Shown: in pieces, positions 3,816 through 63,013 of the stretch
Numbering within the stretch: the stretch's first letter is position 1
How the letters are laid out: each line of letters begins with the position of its first letter
From: Shigella phage TB004
Reading direction: 5' to 3' (one strand)
DNA length: 64,000 nt
Sequence record: MW822011
Notes under the pieces: model-generated
Seen by the model: the letters and a program-made list of their open reading frames with translations, nothing else
What the model was told of the DNA's origin: nothing
The model's database searches: none
Position numbers and translations under genes: made by a program

Positions 3816-4088
3816 ATGAAAACATTTAAAGAATTTATCAATGAAGCTACTTTTAACGAAAAAGTAAAAATTAGTAAAGCTGTCAAGACTTTGATTGCTG
3901 ACATCAATTACCTATATGATATTGATTTAACTGACTATGTAACAGTTGGTAACAAACGTAACTTTTTCGTGTTTGACATCTCTGAACTTGACCAGAATCA
4001 AATTAACAACATTGAGCGTTTTGCTAATGATAAGGGTCTTCGTCATGAGTCAGCGGGTTATAAAAAATACGCAATTTATTTAAAATGA
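3816..4088 (+). CDS. ipI: internal protein I (capsid-targeted, IPI-like)
   Basis: N-terminal capsid targeting sequence MKTFKEFINE; locus after 57B. Confidence 0.7.
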   Translation: MKTFKEFINEATFNEKVKISKAVKTLIADINYLYDIDLTDYVTVGNKRNFFVFDISELDQNQINNIERFANDKGLRHESAGYKKYAIYLK

Positions 4089-4148: not shown

Positions 4149-4457
4149 ATGAAAACATTTAAAGAATTTATCAATGAAGCGGCTGCGCCAAAGACATTCG
4201 TTATTAATACTCAGGCGAGTCTTGATGATGAATACGCGGAGGCAATTCTGAAGTCACTTGCTAAGAACGGTGTTGAAGTAATTGCTTCGGACTTTAAGAA
4301 AGGGGCTTCCGAGATGTTTATTTCTATAACTAAAGGATCTAAAGCTAAGATTAAATCATCATTCGGAGTTGCTCGTACCGATCAAATCGACAATCATGAC
4401 TTTAAACAAACTGGTGCTAAACGGCAGAATACAATTGCATCACGCGGAATAAAATAG
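4149..4457 (+). CDS. second capsid-targeted internal-protein-like ORF
   Basis: 102 aa starting MKTFKEFINEA (CTS); own promoter. Confidence 0.6.
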   Translation: MKTFKEFINEAAAPKTFVINTQASLDDEYAEAILKSLAKNGVEVIASDFKKGASEMFISITKGSKAKIKSSFGVARTDQIDNHDFKQTGAKRQNTIASRGIK

Positions 4458-12476: not shown

Positions 12477-13044
12477 ATGAAAACCTATAAAGAATTTATC
12501 GCTGGAAAAGGCCAAAGGCATTAATAAAGATGAGTGGACTTACCGAGGAAACGGCTTTGACCCTAAAACAGCCCCTATTGAACGATACTTAGCTACAAAA
12601 GCTTCCGACTTTAAAGCTTTCGCTTGGGAAGGACTTCGCTGGCGTACCGATCTAAATATTGAAGTTGATGGGCTTAAATTTGGCCATATTCAAGATGTTG
12701 TTGCTAGTAACTTGGATGCAGCTTTTGTTAAAGCTGACGGTGACCTTCGTCGCTGGAATTTAAAACTATTCTCTAAACAGAAAGGCCCGGTGTTTGTGCC
12801 TAAAGCTGGTAAATGGGTTATTGATAATAAATTAGCTAAGGCTGTCAACTACGCTGGTCTTGAATTCGCCAAGCATAAATCATCATGGAAAGGTCTTGAT
12901 GCAATGGCCTTCCGTAAAGAATTTGCTGATGTTATGGCTAAAGGCGGCTTTAAGGCAGAAATAGATACCTCTAAAGGTACGTTTAAAGACGCTAATGTTC
13001 AGTACGCTTACGCTGTTGCTAATGCAGCCCGTGGTAATTCTTAA
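12477..13044 (+). pseudogene. ipIII: internal protein III gene, frameshifted after the capsid targeting sequence
   Basis: MKTYKEFIA then stop after 15 codons; remainder of IPIII-like sequence open in +1 frame; one extra G near 12504. Confidence 0.55.
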
Positions 13045-13152: not shown

Positions 13153-13455
13153 ATGAAAACATATCAAGAATTTATTACTGAAGCGCGAGTGAGTGCAGGT
13201 AAATTAGAAGCCGCTATAAATAAAAAGGCCCATTCATTTCACGATTTGTCCGATAAAGACCGTAAGAAACTTGTAAGCCTTTATATTGACAAAGAGCGTA
13301 TTCTCGCTCTTCCTGGCGCTAATGAAGGTAAACAGGCCAAGCCTTTGAATGCTGTCGAAAAGAAAATTGATAACTTTGCTTCTAAATTCGGTATGTCTAT
13401 GGATGACCTTCAGCAAGCGGCTATCGAAGCAGCTAAAGTAATTAAAGGTAAATAA
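13153..13455 (+). CDS. ipII: internal protein II
   Basis: 100 aa with CTS MKTYQEFITE; matches recalled T4 IPII. Confidence 0.8.
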   Translation: MKTYQEFITEARVSAGKLEAAINKKAHSFHDLSDKDRKKLVSLYIDKERILALPGANEGKQAKPLNAVEKKIDNFASKFGMSMDDLQQAAIEAAKVIKGK

Positions 13456-13512: not shown

Positions 13513-13877
13513 ATGACTCGTATTAATTTGACTTTAGTATCTGAACTTGCTGATCAACATTTAATCGCGGAATACCATGAATTGCCGCGTGTTTTTGATA
13601 TAATTCGTAAACACGCGGCAAATGGAAAAATGATTATAATCCATGCAAATCAGCTATTAAGTTGAGTCAACAACGACTCGATGAAAAAATTTTAATGAAG
13701 CCGCATTGGTATAAGTATTACGGCAAAAATATTTACATTCAAATAACATGGGAACAAGCTGGACCTCATGATTCTGTGAGGGATTCCCGCCAACCTGTAA
13801 TAAGGTCGAGCCCAAGTGCGGTAATGGGTAAATACAGAAATGGACAATTCATGCGCCACGGAATGGCCCAAATTTAG
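13513..13877 (+). pseudogene. denV: denV (endonuclease V) remnant with internal out-of-frame deletion
   Basis: N-terminal 39 aa match T4 EndoV, then frame breaks; C-terminal ...SQQRLDEKI..WYKYYGK.IY in another frame. Confidence 0.6.
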
Positions 13878-58712: not shown

Positions 58713-58760
58713 TTTACAAGCCGACAAGACTATGGTATAGTAGTCTTGTTGGTTAAATGA
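58713..58760 (+). promoter_or_regulatory. early promoter with inverted repeat flanking -10
   Basis: GTTTACAAGCCGACAAGAC TATGGTATAGTA GTCTTGTTGG. Confidence 0.5.
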
Positions 58761-58770
58761 GGAGATTTTT

Positions 58771-58953
58771 ATGGAATTGGTAAAGGTAGTTTTTATGGGG
58801 TGGTTTAAGAATGAAAGCATGTTTACTAAAGAAATCACAATGATGAAAGATGACGTTCAATGGGCTACTACTCAATATGCTGAAGTTAATAAAGCGCTAG
58901 TTAAAGCTTTCATTGATGACAAGAAAGTATGTGAAGTGGATTGCCGAGGATAA
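58771..58953 (+). CDS. dmd: Dmd-like protein (discriminator of mRNA degradation; antitoxin to RnlA/LsoA)
   Basis: 60 aa, first gene after 41 as recalled for T4 dmd. Confidence 0.6.
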   Translation: MELVKVVFMGWFKNESMFTKEITMMKDDVQWATTQYAEVNKALVKAFIDDKKVCEVDCRG

Positions 58954-58954
58954 T

Positions 58955-59212
58955 ATGCATATCGTTTTATTTAAACCTACTCCGTATAACGTCAGGAAAA
59001 ATACTCAATTCAAAGCACTTATTGCAGATACGTGGGAATTGGTATTAGATATTCCGGCAGAAGAAAGTCCTCCATTTGGTCGAGTGGAATTTATTAAGTT
59101 TGCTGTGCGCCCTACGAAGCGACAGATTCGCCAATGCAAAAGATACTTTCGTAAAATCGCCAAGTTAGAGAAACAGTTTGTAACATGTGATTATGCAGAA
59201 GTTTTAAAATAA
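58955..59212 (+). CDS. hypothetical protein (61.4 position)
   Basis: 85 aa. Confidence 0.45.
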   Translation: MHIVLFKPTPYNVRKNTQFKALIADTWELVLDIPAEESPPFGRVEFIKFAVRPTKRQIRQCKRYFRKIAKLEKQFVTCDYAEVLK

Positions 59213-59270: not shown

Positions 59271-59564
59271 ATGAAAAAATTTATCTTTGCTGCAATTTTT
59301 GCCTTATCTTCTTGTGCTGCTCAGCCTGCTATGGCGGGTTATGACAAAGATTTGTGTGAATGGTCTATGACTGCAGATCAGACTGAGGTTGAAACTCAAA
59401 TTGAAGCGGATATTATGAATATCGTTGAGCGTGATCGTCCTGAAATGAAAGCTGAGGTACAAAAACAACTTAAGTCTGGCGGTGTAATGCAGTATAATTA
59501 TGTTCTGTATTGCGATAAAAACTTTAATAATAAAAATATCATCGCTGAAGTGGTAGGTGAATAA
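59271..59564 (+). CDS. sp: spackle-like periplasmic lipoprotein
   Basis: 97 aa, signal peptide with LSSC lipobox; size and position as recalled for T4 sp. Confidence 0.6.
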   Translation: MKKFIFAAIFALSSCAAQPAMAGYDKDLCEWSMTADQTEVETQIEADIMNIVERDRPEMKAEVQKQLKSGGVMQYNYVLYCDKNFNNKNIIAEVVGE

Positions 59565-60175
59565 TGCTCTATCAAATGCACAAGTGCAAAGATACATACA
59601 AATATAAAGGTGCCCAGTGTTATATCATTAATCGTGAAAACGCGGGTCCAGGTCATTCACATCAATCACGGTTTGTATTCGTTAAAAACAATGAAATTAT
59701 AGCAGTTGCTAATTACATGCTTGTGACTAATGATGTTAATCCAGTGCCTTTTACATATTATAATCTAATGGATTTGGCGTACGATTATAATTGGTTTAAT
59801 CATGATACTTTGGCTCATATTGAAGGCGTAGGATTTGACATCTCTTATTCTAGTTACTCGTTGTGTCCTATGAGCCGAGCTCATAAAGAGCCTGAATATT
59901 TTTCATTTCGTCGGCGCGTAGACTTTAAACGCAGCACAGAGTATGTCGGTGGAATCTTTGTTAAAGATAATCGAATTACTCGCATTATTTATCCTTTGGG
60001 CTGTGGTCAAAAAGATATTGATGTTGATTTAGACTTTACTGAAAACATCATTAATCATATTGCTTCTGTGTATTTTGATATTGATCACAAAATTGTAATA
60101 TGTGGATATGAATTACCATCAGAAAAACAGTCTATTGATGACCAAATTTTTAATGCTTTTATGAATAGAGGTTAA
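59564..60175 (+). CDS. hypothetical protein (61.2 position)
   Basis: 203 aa. Confidence 0.5.
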   Translation: MLYQMHKCKDTYKYKGAQCYIINRENAGPGHSHQSRFVFVKNNEIIAVANYMLVTNDVNPVPFTYYNLMDLAYDYNWFNHDTLAHIEGVGFDISYSSYSLCPMSRAHKEPEYFSFRRRVDFKRSTEYVGGIFVKDNRITRIIYPLGCGQKDIDVDLDFTENIINHIASVYFDIDHKIVICGYELPSEKQSIDDQIFNAFMNRG

Positions 60176-60176
60176 T

Positions 60177-60341
60177 ATGAAAACATATAAAGAATTTATT
60201 AAAGAAGATATGGTCGCTGGAGATTCAGGTGGTAATCCTGAAAATATCTCCACTGGAACAACGTCAGGCGCTGTAGTAAATAAAGGTCCTGAACAGATTC
60301 CTAAAAAGAAAAAAGAGGAATCTAAAGAAAAAGAAGAGTAA
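60177..60341 (+). CDS. small capsid-targeted peptide (CTS-bearing)
   Basis: 54 aa starting MKTYKEFIKE, same CTS as internal proteins; GAGG RBS; Lys/Glu-rich tail. Confidence 0.45.
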   Translation: MKTYKEFIKEDMVAGDSGGNPENISTGTTSGAVVNKGPEQIPKKKKEESKEKEE

Positions 60342-60343
60342 AA

Positions 60344-61372
60344 ATGTCATCAATACCTTGGATTGATAATGAGTTTGCATACCGTGCATTAGCTCATTTA
60401 CCTAAATTCACACAAGTAAATAATAGTTCAACTTTTAAATTACGGTTTAGATGCCCTGTTTGTGGAGATTCAAAAACCGACCAAAATAAAGCCCGTGGAT
60501 GGTATTACGGCGATAATAATGAAGGAAATATTCATTGTTATAACTGCAACTATCATGCACCAATCGGAATATATTTAAAGGAGTTTGAACCTGATTTATA
60601 TCGTGAGTATATCTTTGAAATAAGAAAAGAAAAAGGTAAAAGTCGTCCAGTAGAAAAACCTAAAGAACTTCCTAAACAACCTGAGAAGAAAATAATTAAA
60701 TCTCTTCCGTCATGTATTAGATTAGATAAACTGGCGGAAGACCATCCAATTATAAAATACGTAAAAGCTCGTTGTATTCCAAAGGATAAATGGAAATATC
60801 TTTGGTTTACAACCGAATGGCCTAAATTAGTTAATAGCATAGCACCAGGAACATATAAAAAGGAAATACCTGAGCCTCGTCTTGTTATTCCAATTTATAA
60901 TGCTAATGGAAAAGTTGAGTCTTTTCAAGGACGTGCATTAAAGAAAGATGCTCCCCAAAAATATATCACCATCAAAGCTTATCCTGAGGCAACAAAAATC
61001 TATGGTGTCGAACGGGTTAAAGATGGTGATGTATATGTTCTAGAAGGACCTATAGATTCGCTTTTTATTGAAAATGGTATAGCTATTACGGGCGGTCAAT
61101 TAGACCTAGAAATTGTTCCATTTAAAGATAGACGTGTATGGGTTTTGGATAATGAACCTCGTCATCCTGACACTATTAAACGAATGACTAAATTGGTTGA
61201 TGCAGGAGAAAGGGTTATGTTTTGGGACAAATCTCCCTGGAAATCAAAAGATGTTAATGATATGATTAGAAAGGAAGGTGCAACCCCTGAACAAATTATG
61301 GAATATATGAAAAATAATATTGCGCAGGGATTGATGGCTAAAATGCGGCTATCTAAATATGCTAAGATTTAA
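60344..61372 (+). CDS. 61: DNA primase gp61
   Basis: 342 aa, zinc ribbon CPVCGDS...CYNCNYH plus TOPRIM-like core. Confidence 0.92.
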   Translation: MSSIPWIDNEFAYRALAHLPKFTQVNNSSTFKLRFRCPVCGDSKTDQNKARGWYYGDNNEGNIHCYNCNYHAPIGIYLKEFEPDLYREYIFEIRKEKGKSRPVEKPKELPKQPEKKIIKSLPSCIRLDKLAEDHPIIKYVKARCIPKDKWKYLWFTTEWPKLVNSIAPGTYKKEIPEPRLVIPIYNANGKVESFQGRALKKDAPQKYITIKAYPEATKIYGVERVKDGDVYVLEGPIDSLFIENGIAITGGQLDLEIVPFKDRRVWVLDNEPRHPDTIKRMTKLVDAGERVMFWDKSPWKSKDVNDMIRKEGATPEQIMEYMKNNIAQGLMAKMRLSKYAKI

Positions 61373-61569
61373 ATTAACCCAACTAAAGCAAATGCTAAAT
61401 CTACGAATGTATCAAGAGTAATTACCGGAATACTAACGCCATGAGCAATAGCAACTGGCGATAAAATAAAGTTCCAGAGTAAAATTCCTATCATAGCAGA
61501 AATAGTAAAAGCTATACGTTTTTTATTACCTTTGATGGCATCAACAAGTGCCATTAATTTTTGTACCAT
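61369..61569 (-). CDS. small membrane protein on opposite strand
   Basis: 66 aa, two TM helices; AGGAGG RBS 7 nt upstream; stop overlaps gene 61 stop. Confidence 0.55.
   Translation of the reverse strand: MVQKLMALVDAIKGNKKRIAFTISAMIGILLWNFILSPVAIAHGVSIPVITLDTFVDLAFALVGLI

Positions 61570-61673: not shown

Positions 61674-63013
<1,340 letters not shown>

Follow-up and report, generated by a model that had tools for sequence, protein, structure and literature searches.

The assembly of the T4 head is among the most thoroughly dissected morphogenetic pathways, and the list of its prohead components is considered essentially complete. Maturation of gp23, the major capsid protein, removes its 65 N-terminal residues (PMC9546572); the N-fist of the protein corresponds to residues 66-91 (PMC7136217), and residues 66-105 are flexible inside the unexpanded prohead, where they are thought to contact the core (PMC9546572). 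The protease gp21 has the specificity I/LxE (PMC12991175) and is described as activated once prohead assembly is complete (PMC9958956). In the internal protein IPIII, positions 4 and 7 of the leader govern targeting while positions 8 and 10 govern processing (PMC9026906), the first 10 residues being enough to package foreign proteins (PMC9026906; PMC3012670). The T4 internal proteins are 8-20 kDa in size, mostly basic, folded (IPI*), hypervariable between phages and present at about 360 copies per head. The acidic internal peptides II and VII are small peptides generated by gp21 that remain in the mature T4 heads, and they derive from essential core proteins of the late head-gene cluster.

The window analysed here, i.e. 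the whole stretch of 64,000 nucleotides of Shigella phage TB004 (MW822011), carries on its + strand an ORF of 54 codons, from ATG to TAA, at positions 60177..60341 (translation MKTYKEFIKEDMVAGDSGGNPENISTGTTSGAVVNKGPEQIPKKKKEESKEKEE). A Shine-Dalgarno sequence, AGAGG (60167..60171, + strand), can be read directly 5 nt before the ATG. The ORF lies between gene 61.2/adfA (anti-DarT factor; 59564..60175, + strand; Pfam PF23813 AdfA, E 4.3e-130), with which it has a common operon, and the DNA primase gene 61 (60344..61372, + strand), its invariant downstream neighbour; the stop of 61.2 (60175) and the ATG of the ORF are 1 nt apart, and its own stop and the primase ATG (60344) 2 nt apart. The sequence-only reading had reported this ORF, a ribosome-binding site and the filling of the gap before gene 61, and the three are found exactly as it described them. 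It had also called the ORF unannotated, which is incorrect, the ORF being T4 gene 61.1 (NP_049649.1, 'gp61.1 hypothetical protein'; UniProt P39228; phrog_1823) and being called as a CDS in close relatives too, e.g. XRL27892.1 in phage HMD-9. T4 gp61.1 and the window ORF share their position between 61.2 and 61, their length and their operon, and 52/54 residues are identical, the two substitutions being Y4F and T26I in T4; the match to phrog_1823 covers positions 1-54 of 54 (E 7e-34). Judged by sequence and position, the window ORF is the ortholog of the T4 early gene 61.1, a known gene without assigned function in T4, for which our literature search on functional or proteomic reports yielded gene lists only.

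The leader of 61.1, residues 1-10 MKTYKEFIKE (60177..60206, + strand), closely resembles those of the internal proteins. When the window was scanned with its 30 nt (≤3 mismatches, 0 occurrences expected by chance), the leader recurred at 3816, 4149 and 13153, corresponding to paralogous leaders, all on the + strand, of an internal-head-protein gene of the ipI locus (3816..3845; 90 aa when read from this start codon; phrog_7673 'internal head protein', E 1e-54), of another internal-head-protein gene (4149..4178; 102 aa; phrog_2667 'internal head protein', E 2e-41) and of ipII (13153..13182; 100 aa; 30-nt leader match and peptide pattern scan). With these leaders 61.1 has 27/30 nt and 8/10 amino acids in common, and 24/30 nt (hand count) with a frameshifted ipIII remnant at 12477. 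The likeness is limited to the 30 nt of the leader, since around the three in-register internal-protein genes the flanks agree with those of 61.1 at only 9-14/30 positions upstream and 3-6/15 downstream. The nucleotide identity is itself partly expected, because the amino acids are identical and the codon usage is AT-rich. In a six-frame scan of the window, the pattern M-[KR]-T-[FYW]-x-[ED]-F-[ILV]-x-E was found only at the three intact internal-protein starts and at 61.1. Residues Y4, F7, I8 and E10 keep all four determinant positions of IPIII, the leader of which is MKTYQEFIAE, and a helix is predicted by AF2 at residues 4-13. By these resemblances the leader of 61.1 is an internal-protein-type capsid-targeting sequence (CTS); the initial claim of a CTS on the same cassette as the internal proteins is borne out by the 27/30 nt shared with three ip genes and by the four retained determinants. 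When IMG/VR was scanned for the RB49-type leader FKQFVEE, 61.1 was the only match in Krischvirus contigs, and leaders of this kind are frequent at the N-termini of ORFs from viral contigs that are unrelated.

The remainder of the protein resembles gp23. By BLASTP, 16/37 residues are identical without gaps (E 1e-8); the Smith-Waterman score is 80, against 29 +/- 4.4 for shuffled sequences (Gumbel p ~2e-7); the profile-profile comparison by hhalign gives 97.7% and E 1.8e-12; and in a search of the PDB (177,635 sequences) the only significant matches were gp23 (E 8.1e-13) and gp23* (E 1e-10). An artefact of Gly/Ser/Thr composition is excluded by the composition-preserving shuffles (0/5000 reach 80), by the profile-profile comparison and by the PDB-wide search, where gp23 alone is significant. 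Residues 11-36 (DMVAGDSGGNPENISTGTTSGAVVNK; 60207..60284, + strand) correspond to the gp23* N-fist (gp23 66-91) in BLASTP, hhalign and the PDB search, and residues 37-47 (GPEQIPKKKKE; 60285..60317, + strand) are paired with the first residues of the gp23* N-arm (gp23 92-102) in hhalign and hmmsearch, whose alignments reach gp23 residues 101-102. On the strength of these alignments, residues 2-47 of 61.1 are homologous to gp23 57-102, i.e. to the gp21 maturation site and the 25-residue N-fist, in exact register. This homology is new here, and in the literature searched we found no description of a CTS or of gp23 homology for 61.1. The segment had at first been presented as a Gly/Ser-rich stretch with a Lys/Glu tail, which overlooks the homolog of the gp23 maturation junction and N-fist.

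Other head proteins gave no such signal: T4 gp20, 67, 68, 21, 22, 24, inh and hoc show no similarity to 61.1, all Smith-Waterman scores being ≤43. With a narrow T-even profile, a search of 1.8 billion proteins recovered 50 clusters, all belonging to the 61.1 family and none of them with proteins of gp23 length, the gp23 similarity being visible in profile search only with a broader 61.1 profile. The trypsin-like 'GDSGG' motif was also considered as a catalytic site and dismissed, because its Ser is freely exchanged for Ala in orthologs.

The two proteins have about 43-46 homologous residues in register with the cleavage site, and both are flexible or disordered when undocked, the core of 61.1 being predicted as disordered (AF2 among the predictors). 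In contrast to gp23, 61.1 lacks the HK97-fold body (P and A domains, insertion domain). Moreover, gp23 His72 and Tyr74, which are near-invariant in the alignments, are replaced by Ser and Gly in most 61.1, and Glu67 by an invariant Met. After the Gly-Pro of 61.1, which is invariant in close relatives, the sequences part and 61.1 continues into a Lys-rich tail. This Lys/Glu-rich tail (residues 43-54; 60303..60338, + strand) is fast-evolving, with a pN of ~0.46, while nearly every member of the family retains a KKKK/KKRK patch. As read from its sequence, the 61.1 product is thus a 54-residue, largely disordered putative pro-peptide consisting of a CTS (1-10), a gp23-like part (11-47) and a Lys-rich tail.

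The junction between the first two parts, Ile8-Lys9-Glu10 (60198..60206, + strand), has the I/L-x-E form cut by gp21 and is a predicted cleavage site, at which the scissile bond would follow Glu10 (between 60206 and 60207). It aligns gap-free on gp23 Leu63-Thr64-Glu65, the known maturation site. Short 61.1 forms, in their large majority, have a hydrophobic-x-E directly before (D/E)MVAGD, and so do the long forms (~155 aa) of CC31, Acj61, KVP40-like and Pseudomonas phages; in the long form, e.g. that of CC31 or KVP40, the predicted cut would fall at LFE|D. Because hydrophobic-x-Glu is kept in both short and long forms, this family-wide conservation is best explained if cleavage at the junction matters. 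The predicted P1' residue of 61.1 is Asp; it is Ala in the internal proteins and gp23.

The sequence-only reading had proposed conservation of the ORF in relatives as a check, and 61.1 is intact in every relative examined and under strong purifying selection. In the related IMG/VR metagenomic loci, 21/21 carry an intact 61.1 with its Shine-Dalgarno site, every ortholog having a GGAG/GAGG-type site within 16 nt before the start codon. A primase homolog begins 2-47 nt after the 61.1 stop in 17 of these 21 loci; in the other 4 the automatic search found no primase, although for two of them (CC31 or CC31-like) the annotation places primase right after 61.1. The same synteny occurs in T4, HMD-9, CC31, Acj61, kaaroe and Pseudomonas phage PspYZU05, where 61.1 stands exactly between helicase 41 and primase 61, and around 1500 phage records across Straboviridae genera contain 61.1. 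For the whole ORF, NG86 dN/dS is 0.06-0.16 (unsaturated pairs), and for the core ~0.02-0.12 with synonymous sites near saturation. Between genera within the T-even-like group, the core pN is 0.03-0.19 compared with a pS of 0.53-0.95, and the leader is constrained too (pN 0.08-0.15, pS 0.5-0.8). The core is nearly invariant from phages of E. coli to those of Vibrio, Aeromonas and Acinetobacter. These data show that 61.1 is a genuine gene under strong purifying selection, and a chance ORF or a purely regulatory upstream ORF is excluded because of the universal conservation, the Shine-Dalgarno sites and the dN/dS of 0.02-0.12. It is a quasi-core gene, conserved in T4 and in phages as far as those of Vibrio, Aeromonas, Acinetobacter and Pseudomonas, that brings together a head-targeting leader, a predicted prohead-protease site and a copy of the N-fist.

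A longer gp61.1 is found in other genera of the Straboviridae. In CC31, Acj61, RB16, KVP40, Aeh1 and PspYZU05, gp61.1 exists as a long form of ~130-165 aa (phrog_2086). It occupies the same place upstream of primase and has the same C-terminal module as the short form (hydrophobic-x-E, MVAGDSGG...NIASG.TSG..V.NKGP, then KKRK), but instead of the 10-residue CTS of T-even phages it has a helical N-terminal region of ~85-105 residues, modelled by AF2 with pLDDT 74-84 over residues 10-70. In these long forms, the homology to gp23 may reach back to gp23 residue 32. Pfam gave nothing meaningful on the long forms, a BFVD fold search with the long-form model returned homologs only, some of them embedded in 387-913-aa proteins such as A0A411BBR2, A0A1B1IT15, A0A7S5R3P1 and A0A6J7WVK5, and the N-domain is absent from the rest of the window. 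Alone, without a clear N-fist motif, this domain occurs in Kyanoviridae, pelagiphage and rhizobiophages, its homologs lying upstream of the tail sheath in a cyanophage and near a tail assembly chaperone in a pelagiphage. In the T-even phages, the ~100-residue N-domain has given way to the 10-residue CTS with the C-terminal peptide kept, which fits an N-terminal part acting as a removable delivery or pro-piece.

Concerning expression, the best sigma-70-like match, TTTACA-17-TATAGT with TG (58713..58741, + strand), lies upstream of dmd and is the probable start, as a putative promoter, of an early unit dmd-61.4-sp-61.2-61.1-61 (dmd at 58771, 61.4 (tifA) at ~58955-59212, sp at 59271, adfA at 59564-60175). 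No terminator-like site occurs within this unit, the first on the + strand after the promoter match being at 61532-61557. No late-promoter box TATAAATA was found on the + strand between 19112 and 63629, which leaves ~40 kb upstream of 61.1 without one. In a T4 infection time course, 61.1 RNA is classed as early, and ipI, ipII and ipIII as 'early RNA, late protein' (PMC9697503 supplements). Since the ipI-III RNA is also early, early transcription need not be an obstacle to a role in the head. In the whole-cell proteome of the same time course, the products of the operon neighbours 61.2, sp, 61.4 and dmd were detected but the 61.1 protein was not (PMC9697503).

Taken together, these data suggest that 61.1 probably encodes a head-related peptide that has been overlooked. 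As our tentatively preferred explanation, 61.1 could be a pro-peptide targeted to the prohead and cut there by gp21 to a 44-residue peptide; its translation level, targeting, cleavage, retention or injection, and mature function are what we infer. As for IPI-III, the leader would attach the peptide to the scaffolding core while the prohead is assembling, and the gp23-like junction may aid this docking, because the equivalent N-terminal part of gp23 is presumed to touch the core. Activated gp21 would then cut after Glu10, in the register of gp23 Glu65|Ala66, freeing a 44-residue (4.6 kDa) 61.1* with an N-terminus mimicking that of mature gp23*. The peptide would either be retained as a minor peptide inside the head or bind the capsid or scaffold surfaces to which the gp23 N-fist normally docks. 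If 61.1 is indeed processed and packaged, CTS cargo would gain a new class, a fragment of a capsid protein in place of an anti-restriction protein, and the peptide would offer a way to learn what the N-terminal region of gp23 binds within the prohead.

With IPI, IPII and IPIII (and Alt), 61.1 shares the ten-residue leader with the same determinants, the I-x-E motif, the early RNA and a small non-enzymatic product. The likeness to internal proteins seen at the outset holds for this CTS leader. In contrast to the internal proteins, 61.1 is conserved across genera, adjacent to primase, devoid of a late promoter and never reported in heads, and 61.1* would be a disordered 4.6 kDa peptide, slightly acidic in T-evens (predicted pI ~5.0, net charge -2). 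A basic and variable cargo is typical of internal proteins without strictly defining them, and 61.1, with a pI of 5.0 and a nearly invariant core, does not fit it. By size and slight acidity the predicted 61.1* is similar to peptides II and VII, to which it has no sequence similarity (scores ≤43 for gp67, gp68 and gp22). Some observations argue against a head role: the protein went undetected in the T4 proteome, the predicted P1' residue is Asp instead of Ala, the peptide is extremely conserved and not basic in T-evens, the invariant primase-adjacent place in a replication/anti-defence early operon is unexpected for a head component, and 61.1 has no canonical late promoter. The accepted list of what makes up the prohead core does not include 61.1 (PMC9958956), and the main text and those supplements consulted of a targeted mass spectrometry study of T4 heads, which gives cleavage sites in nine head proteins, do not mention it (PMC5694885). 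Retention is also questionable: other cleavage fragments leave the prohead by way of capsomer openings of 14-17 Å, and a disordered 4.6 kDa peptide could do the same. A bolder form of the head-peptide explanation, which we consider quite unlikely, is that gp61.1 acts in trans as a 'spare N-fist' in head morphogenesis, delivered by the CTS or the ~100-residue pro-domain, released by gp21 and filling the surfaces of gp23 or the scaffold to which an N-fist docks. Such sites could be those, e.g. beside gp24 pentons or the portal, where no neighbouring capsid subunit can supply an N-fist, and their filling could affect how the capsid expands, its stability or its length. In the capsomers next to gp24 and to the portal, the N-fists of the D subunits are disordered. 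No earlier case would be known in which a segment of a major capsid protein is encoded as a separate, protease-activated gene.

Other hypotheses can be weighed against targeting to the prohead. If 61.1 acts in the cytoplasm, it would be either a capsid-mimic regulator or an immune decoy. In the first case, which we hold to be unlikely, an unpackaged competitor or regulator of the interactions of the gp23 N-terminus would tune head assembly, length or the timing of maturation, with as candidate partners (i) gp21, 61.1 being a pseudo-substrate that restrains stray activity; (ii) the gp22 scaffold; (iii) the gp23 docking sites, where it would discourage lattice contacts made too early or wrongly, as in polyheads; and (iv) the chaperone route. 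The homology spans exactly the gp23 junction and N-fist, in a region thought to contact the core where the changes A66D, A94V and G97S alter capsid length (PMC9546572), and early expression would put the peptide in the cell ahead of gp23. T4 already has a gp21 inhibitor, inh, annotated as a minor head protein, and the very high conservation of 61.1 favours a conserved phage partner over a variable host one. However, a competitor of this kind leaves the bona fide CTS of the T-even 61.1 unexplained, no phenotype is known for the gene, and stoichiometric competition with the ~930 gp23 copies per head is unlikely because the 61.1 protein was undetected in proteomics.

The second case, a decoy that would pass for a gp21 substrate or for the N-terminal region of gp23 and so blunt host immune sensors set off by freshly made capsid protein or by the prohead protease, seems to us quite unlikely. 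Among defence systems, Lit/Gol and CmdTAC do sense gp23, but the Gol region, roughly gp23 93-122, lies downstream of the 61.1-homologous segment and counts against this explanation. Sensing of gp21 proteolysis also exists, in the CBASS CdnG (PMC12991175), and the early-expressed 61.1 shares its operon with three proven anti-toxin genes, AdfA, Dmd and TifA, the dmd-tifA-adfA region being an 'anti-TA island' whose other genes are explicitly flagged as anti-toxin candidates (PMC9391042). Counter-defence genes are, however, typically patchy and fast-evolving, whereas the 61.1 core is nearly invariant and always beside primase; 61.1 has no homology to Dmd, TifA or AdfA, and no PADLOC or other anti-defence annotation is known for it.

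Finally, the least probable of these explanations is that 61.1 serves the primase. It would then modulate or partner gp61/gp41, its Lys-rich tail attaching to DNA or to an acidic partner, or else be an upstream ORF feeding ribosomes to the gene 61 start. 61.1 is directly upstream of gene 61 in every examined genome with an N-fist-like peptide, its purine-rich last codons are immediately 5' of the primase start codon and the frameshifted 61.1 tail of a T6-type variant runs into gene 61 (P0002), but coupling alone cannot explain the core dN/dS, the gp23 homology or the CTS, profile searches reveal no similarity of 61.1 to any replication protein, and the homologs of the long-form N-domain in a cyanophage and a pelagiphage are in or near structural-gene neighbourhoods.

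The relation to gp23 also bears on the annotation of the gene, since GenBank and UniRef label 61.1-type ORFs as 'major capsid (domain-containing) protein'. Scans of 61.1 against Pfam (E ≤ 10) and NCBIfam gave no match, and PF07068, which covers gp23 88-517 and thus begins at gp23 residue 88, does not match it. Because it has 54 residues only and no Pfam match, 61.1 is not a capsid protein; the 'major capsid protein' labels are misnomers, and this recurrent mislabelling in the databases is corrected here.

The window is part of a Tequatrovirus (T4-like) genome, its + strand being equivalent to the minus strand of T4. The ORF, at positions 60177-60341 on this + strand, runs from ATG to TAA over 54 codons and has the product MKTYKEFIKEDMVAGDSGGNPENISTGTTSGAVVNKGPEQIPKKKKEESKEKEE. 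A Shine-Dalgarno sequence (AGAGG) is found 5 nt upstream. The ORF starts 1 nt past the point where the gene before it terminates, and its own end is followed, after 2 nt, by the start codon of primase gene 61 (60344-61372, +). The sequence-only reading therefore described the ORF, its ribosome-binding site and the gap before gene 61 correctly, and was mistaken in calling it unannotated: it is T4 gene 61.1 (NP_049649.1, 'gp61.1 hypothetical protein'), differing from the T4 product at 2 of 54 residues, and the CDS is called in close relatives too. The neighboring genes are 41, dmd, 61.4 (tifA), sp, 61.2 (adfA; product AdfA by Pfam PF23813, E 4e-130) and 61, and the window ORF shows the sequence and synteny features of the T4 61.1 family. 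The best sigma-70-like promoter stands immediately before dmd, with no terminator-like site between it and the end of gene 61, and no late-promoter box (TATAAATA) was found upstream of 61.1 on the + strand over ~40 kb; in T4, the 61.1 RNA is of the early class (PMC9697503 supplement). The labelling around this locus in GenBank records is annotation noise: HMD-9 (L001, PV287714.1) carries adfA (61.2) as 'putative major capsid protein' and 61.4 as 'DNA polymerase', and the 61.1 ORF is labelled 'major capsid protein' in HY01, pSe_SNUABM_01, Roth01, Maroon, KM16, Minot and others.

61.1 is a genuine gene. It was detected by tblastn in about 1500 phage records from many Straboviridae genera, and an intact ORF with a strong Shine-Dalgarno site was present in all 21 IMG/VR loci retrieved by family alignment. 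A script detected a primase homolog 2-47 nt downstream in 17 of these 21 loci; two of the four others are CC31 or CC31-like, with primase annotated directly downstream. Nei-Gojobori counts for between-genus pairs inside the T-even-like group gave, for the core, pS of 0.53-0.95 (synonymous sites near saturation), pN of 0.03-0.19 and dN/dS of about 0.02-0.12, the Krischvirus comparison being weaker (pN 0.36, dN/dS about 0.4). The leader is likewise constrained (pN 0.08-0.15), and the tail changes rapidly in sequence (pN about 0.46), yet retains a KKKK/KKRK patch. With the ORF intact throughout the IMG/VR loci and its core under purifying selection, the conservation in relatives by which the sequence-only reading proposed to judge the ORF was observed, as was the nucleotide cassette that it saw shared with the internal proteins: copies of the 30-nt leader with no more than 3 mismatches stand at 3816, 4149 and 13153 (chance expectation 0), where they head ipII and ORFs assigned to 'internal head protein' families of PHROG. 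A fifth copy, at 12477, heads a frameshifted ipIII, and the likeness between 61.1 and the internal-protein genes ends exactly at the limits of the 10 codons. In IPIII, the first ten residues are enough for packaging, positions 4 and 7 affecting targeting and 8 and 10 processing (PMC9026906); the corresponding residues in 61.1 are Y4, F7, I8 and E10. Owing to this recurrence and these determinants, the presence of a capsid-targeting sequence (CTS; residues 1-10, MKTYKEFIKE) is as well supported as sequence alone allows.

Several observations concern such leaders elsewhere. At the ipI locus, two internal-head-protein genes in tandem (3816-4088 and 4149-4457, both +; phrog_7673 and phrog_2667) carry different cargo behind identical 30-nt leaders (MKTFKEFINE), which fits a cassette-like shuffling of cargo behind a constant leader. 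The ipIII gene (12477-13044, +) seems disrupted, the CTS-led ORF MKTYKEFIAGKGQRH* stopping at ~12524 and the remaining IPIII-like sequence lying in other frames (e.g., ORF 12712-13044); this reflects either pseudogene status or a frameshift error in sequencing. Among viral contigs, 27 of 93 exact matches to an FKQFVEE-encoding pattern were at ORF N-termini (MK[TS]FKQFVEE...), in IMG/VR contigs L036, L038, L044, L059, L090, L105 and others, several (e.g., L038, L090/L105) being followed by a Gly-rich peptide and a KKRK tail. CTS-like leaders may be spread much more widely than among T-even phages alone.

Since several GenBank/UniRef records call the tiny ORF 'major capsid (domain-containing) protein', 61.1 was compared directly with gp23, the major capsid protein of T4. 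An ungapped BLASTP alignment put residues 2-38 on gp23 57-93 (16/37 identical, E 1e-8). The local alignment score was 80, whereas composition-preserving shuffles gave 29 +/- 4.4 and in 5000 trials never exceeded 55 (Gumbel p about 2e-7). Distant family members of the long form, with an extended N-terminus, reached the same level against T4 gp23 (77-79), and eight other T4 head proteins scored 43 or less. By hhalign, the 41-sequence family alignment matched the gp23 N-terminal alignment (97.7%, E 1.8e-12) over residues 5-47 on gp23 60-102, and among all PDB sequences only gp23 and its mature form gp23* were significant against the family profile (E 8.1e-13 and 1.1e-10). As I8-K9-E10 stands opposite gp23 L63-T64-E65 and the prohead protease gp21 strips 65 N-terminal residues from gp23 (PMC9546572), the bond predicted to be cut in 61.1 coincides exactly in the alignment with the one cut when gp23 matures. 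Residues 66-91 of gp23 form the 'N-fist', an unusual 25-residue element which in the expanded capsid touches four subunits and contributes to the Soc site; in the prohead, prior to expansion, residues 66-105 lack order and are thought to contact the scaffolding core (PMC7136217; PMC9958956; PMC9546572). For the 61.1 core, too, AlphaFold2 predicts disorder, the leader alone being helical. Since the HK97 body is absent, 61.1 is not a capsid protein.

A family profile search of 1.8 billion representative proteins returned 50 clusters at 50% identity, all members sharing [hydrophobic]-x-E-(x)-MVAGD(S/A)GG-x3-NIA(S/A)G-x-(T/S)SG-x-V-x-x-KGP and, after it, a tail rich in Lys/Arg. The variable part is the N-terminus, a 10-12-residue CTS-like leader in the T-even type, MIGFKQFVEENKLKE in Krischvirus, and a region of ~100 residues in Karamvirus CC31, Acinetobacter Acj61, RB16, KVP40-like, Aeromonas and Pseudomonas phages. 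This long region has LFE|D, LYE|S or MLE|M at its end, and a helical structure is predicted, at moderate confidence, for its first ~70 residues. In the long form, the similarity to gp23 may start as early as gp23 residue 32 (hhalign, 96.4%, E 1.1e-9). Pelagiphage HTVC008M, rhizobiophage phiM12 and a cyanophage, where it lies upstream of tail sheath, have the N-domain on its own, lacking a clear N-fist motif. Because the N-terminus varies and the junction and core are common to all, the conserved Straboviridae module is a predicted cleavable junction plus an N-fist-like peptide, the putative pro-domain being replaced in T-even phages by an internal-protein-type CTS. As a targeting signal of proven activity has taken its place, the N-terminal part seems to be a piece that serves delivery or is removed as a pro-piece.

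Aberrant members were also observed. In the T6 type (P0002/P0004, 62 aa), the tail is frameshifted in an A-rich run (…PKKKKRNLKKKKSKNVINTLD; window counterpart 60300-60341) and the ORF runs over the primase start, still Lys-rich, so the tail sequence seems unimportant or the A-run slippery. Three metagenomic proteins (P0040, P0054, P0058; 149-251 aa) have after the Lys-rich tail a second domain opening with a CTS-like motif (…MNEVSNFKQFVEGLEADK…), which may have arisen when a leader-bearing gene downstream was fused to it or reached by read-through. P0003 (69 aa, 530-nt ENA contig), with a core identical to that of the window and an acidic 20-residue extension (MSEEIKRTEEAAEESSNFIHEFIKE…) in place of the first CTS residues, may be a recombinant or assembly chimera.

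We tentatively propose, at somewhat less than even odds, that 61.1 is taken into the prohead and cut by gp21. The leader, perhaps with the gp23-like junction, would bring it into the assembling prohead, and cleavage after Glu10 would release a 44-residue peptide (4.6 kDa, computed pI about 5) whose start resembles gp23*. This proposal rests on the gp21-type junction motif retained throughout a strongly selected family, together with the timing of gp21, described as active once prohead assembly is complete (PMC9546572; PMC9958956), and on the above exchange of a pro-domain for a CTS. Against it, the protein was undetected in the T4 infection proteome, where its upstream operon neighbors dmd, 61.4, sp and 61.2 were detected (PMC9697503 supplements), and is missing from the accepted list of prohead core components (PMC9958956); the gene has no late promoter and invariably adjoins primase, and a small disordered peptide could leave through the prohead pores. 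Judging by its high conservation, the mature peptide more probably has a conserved phage protein (gp23, gp22 or gp21) as its partner than one from the host. An unlikely alternative is a cytoplasmic competitor or pseudo-substrate modulating gp21, gp22 or gp23 interactions; slightly less likely is a decoy that distracts host systems sensing capsid protein or the prohead protease, which agrees with the dmd-tifA-adfA anti-toxin island (PMC9391042; PMC12991175). A primase-linked protein or translational-coupling ORF is improbable, and as sole explanation is contradicted by the amino-acid-level selection and the gp23 homology.

Under the prohead proposal, 61.1 would be a CTS and gp21-site pro-peptide with a capsid-protein fragment as cargo. 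It has in common with CTS-bearing internal proteins both sequence-defined features and may resemble them in incorporation, cleavage and injection; it differs from them in conservation, charge, size and genomic location. A literature search of incomplete coverage found no mention of a CTS or gp23 homology for 61.1, and an earlier mention is possible. The gene is already known; for a system studied as thoroughly as T4, its architecture comes as a surprise, and the proposal is readily testable.

Two further genes of the window deserve mention. The denV gene (endonuclease V; 13513-13877, +) seems truncated or frameshifted: a 50-aa ORF stops at 13665, and the C-terminal part that resembles denV (…RLDEKI…WYKYYGK) is read in a different frame. 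Between primase and dam, a 186-aa ORF (61674-62234, +), inserted relative to T4 and with its stop overlapping the dam start (62234), matches phrog_8706 (function unannotated) and shows weak similarity, below threshold, to the restriction endonuclease DpnII (Pfam PF04556; E 0.002, 17.9 bits vs cutoff 23); it may encode a GATC-specific endonuclease partner of Dam.
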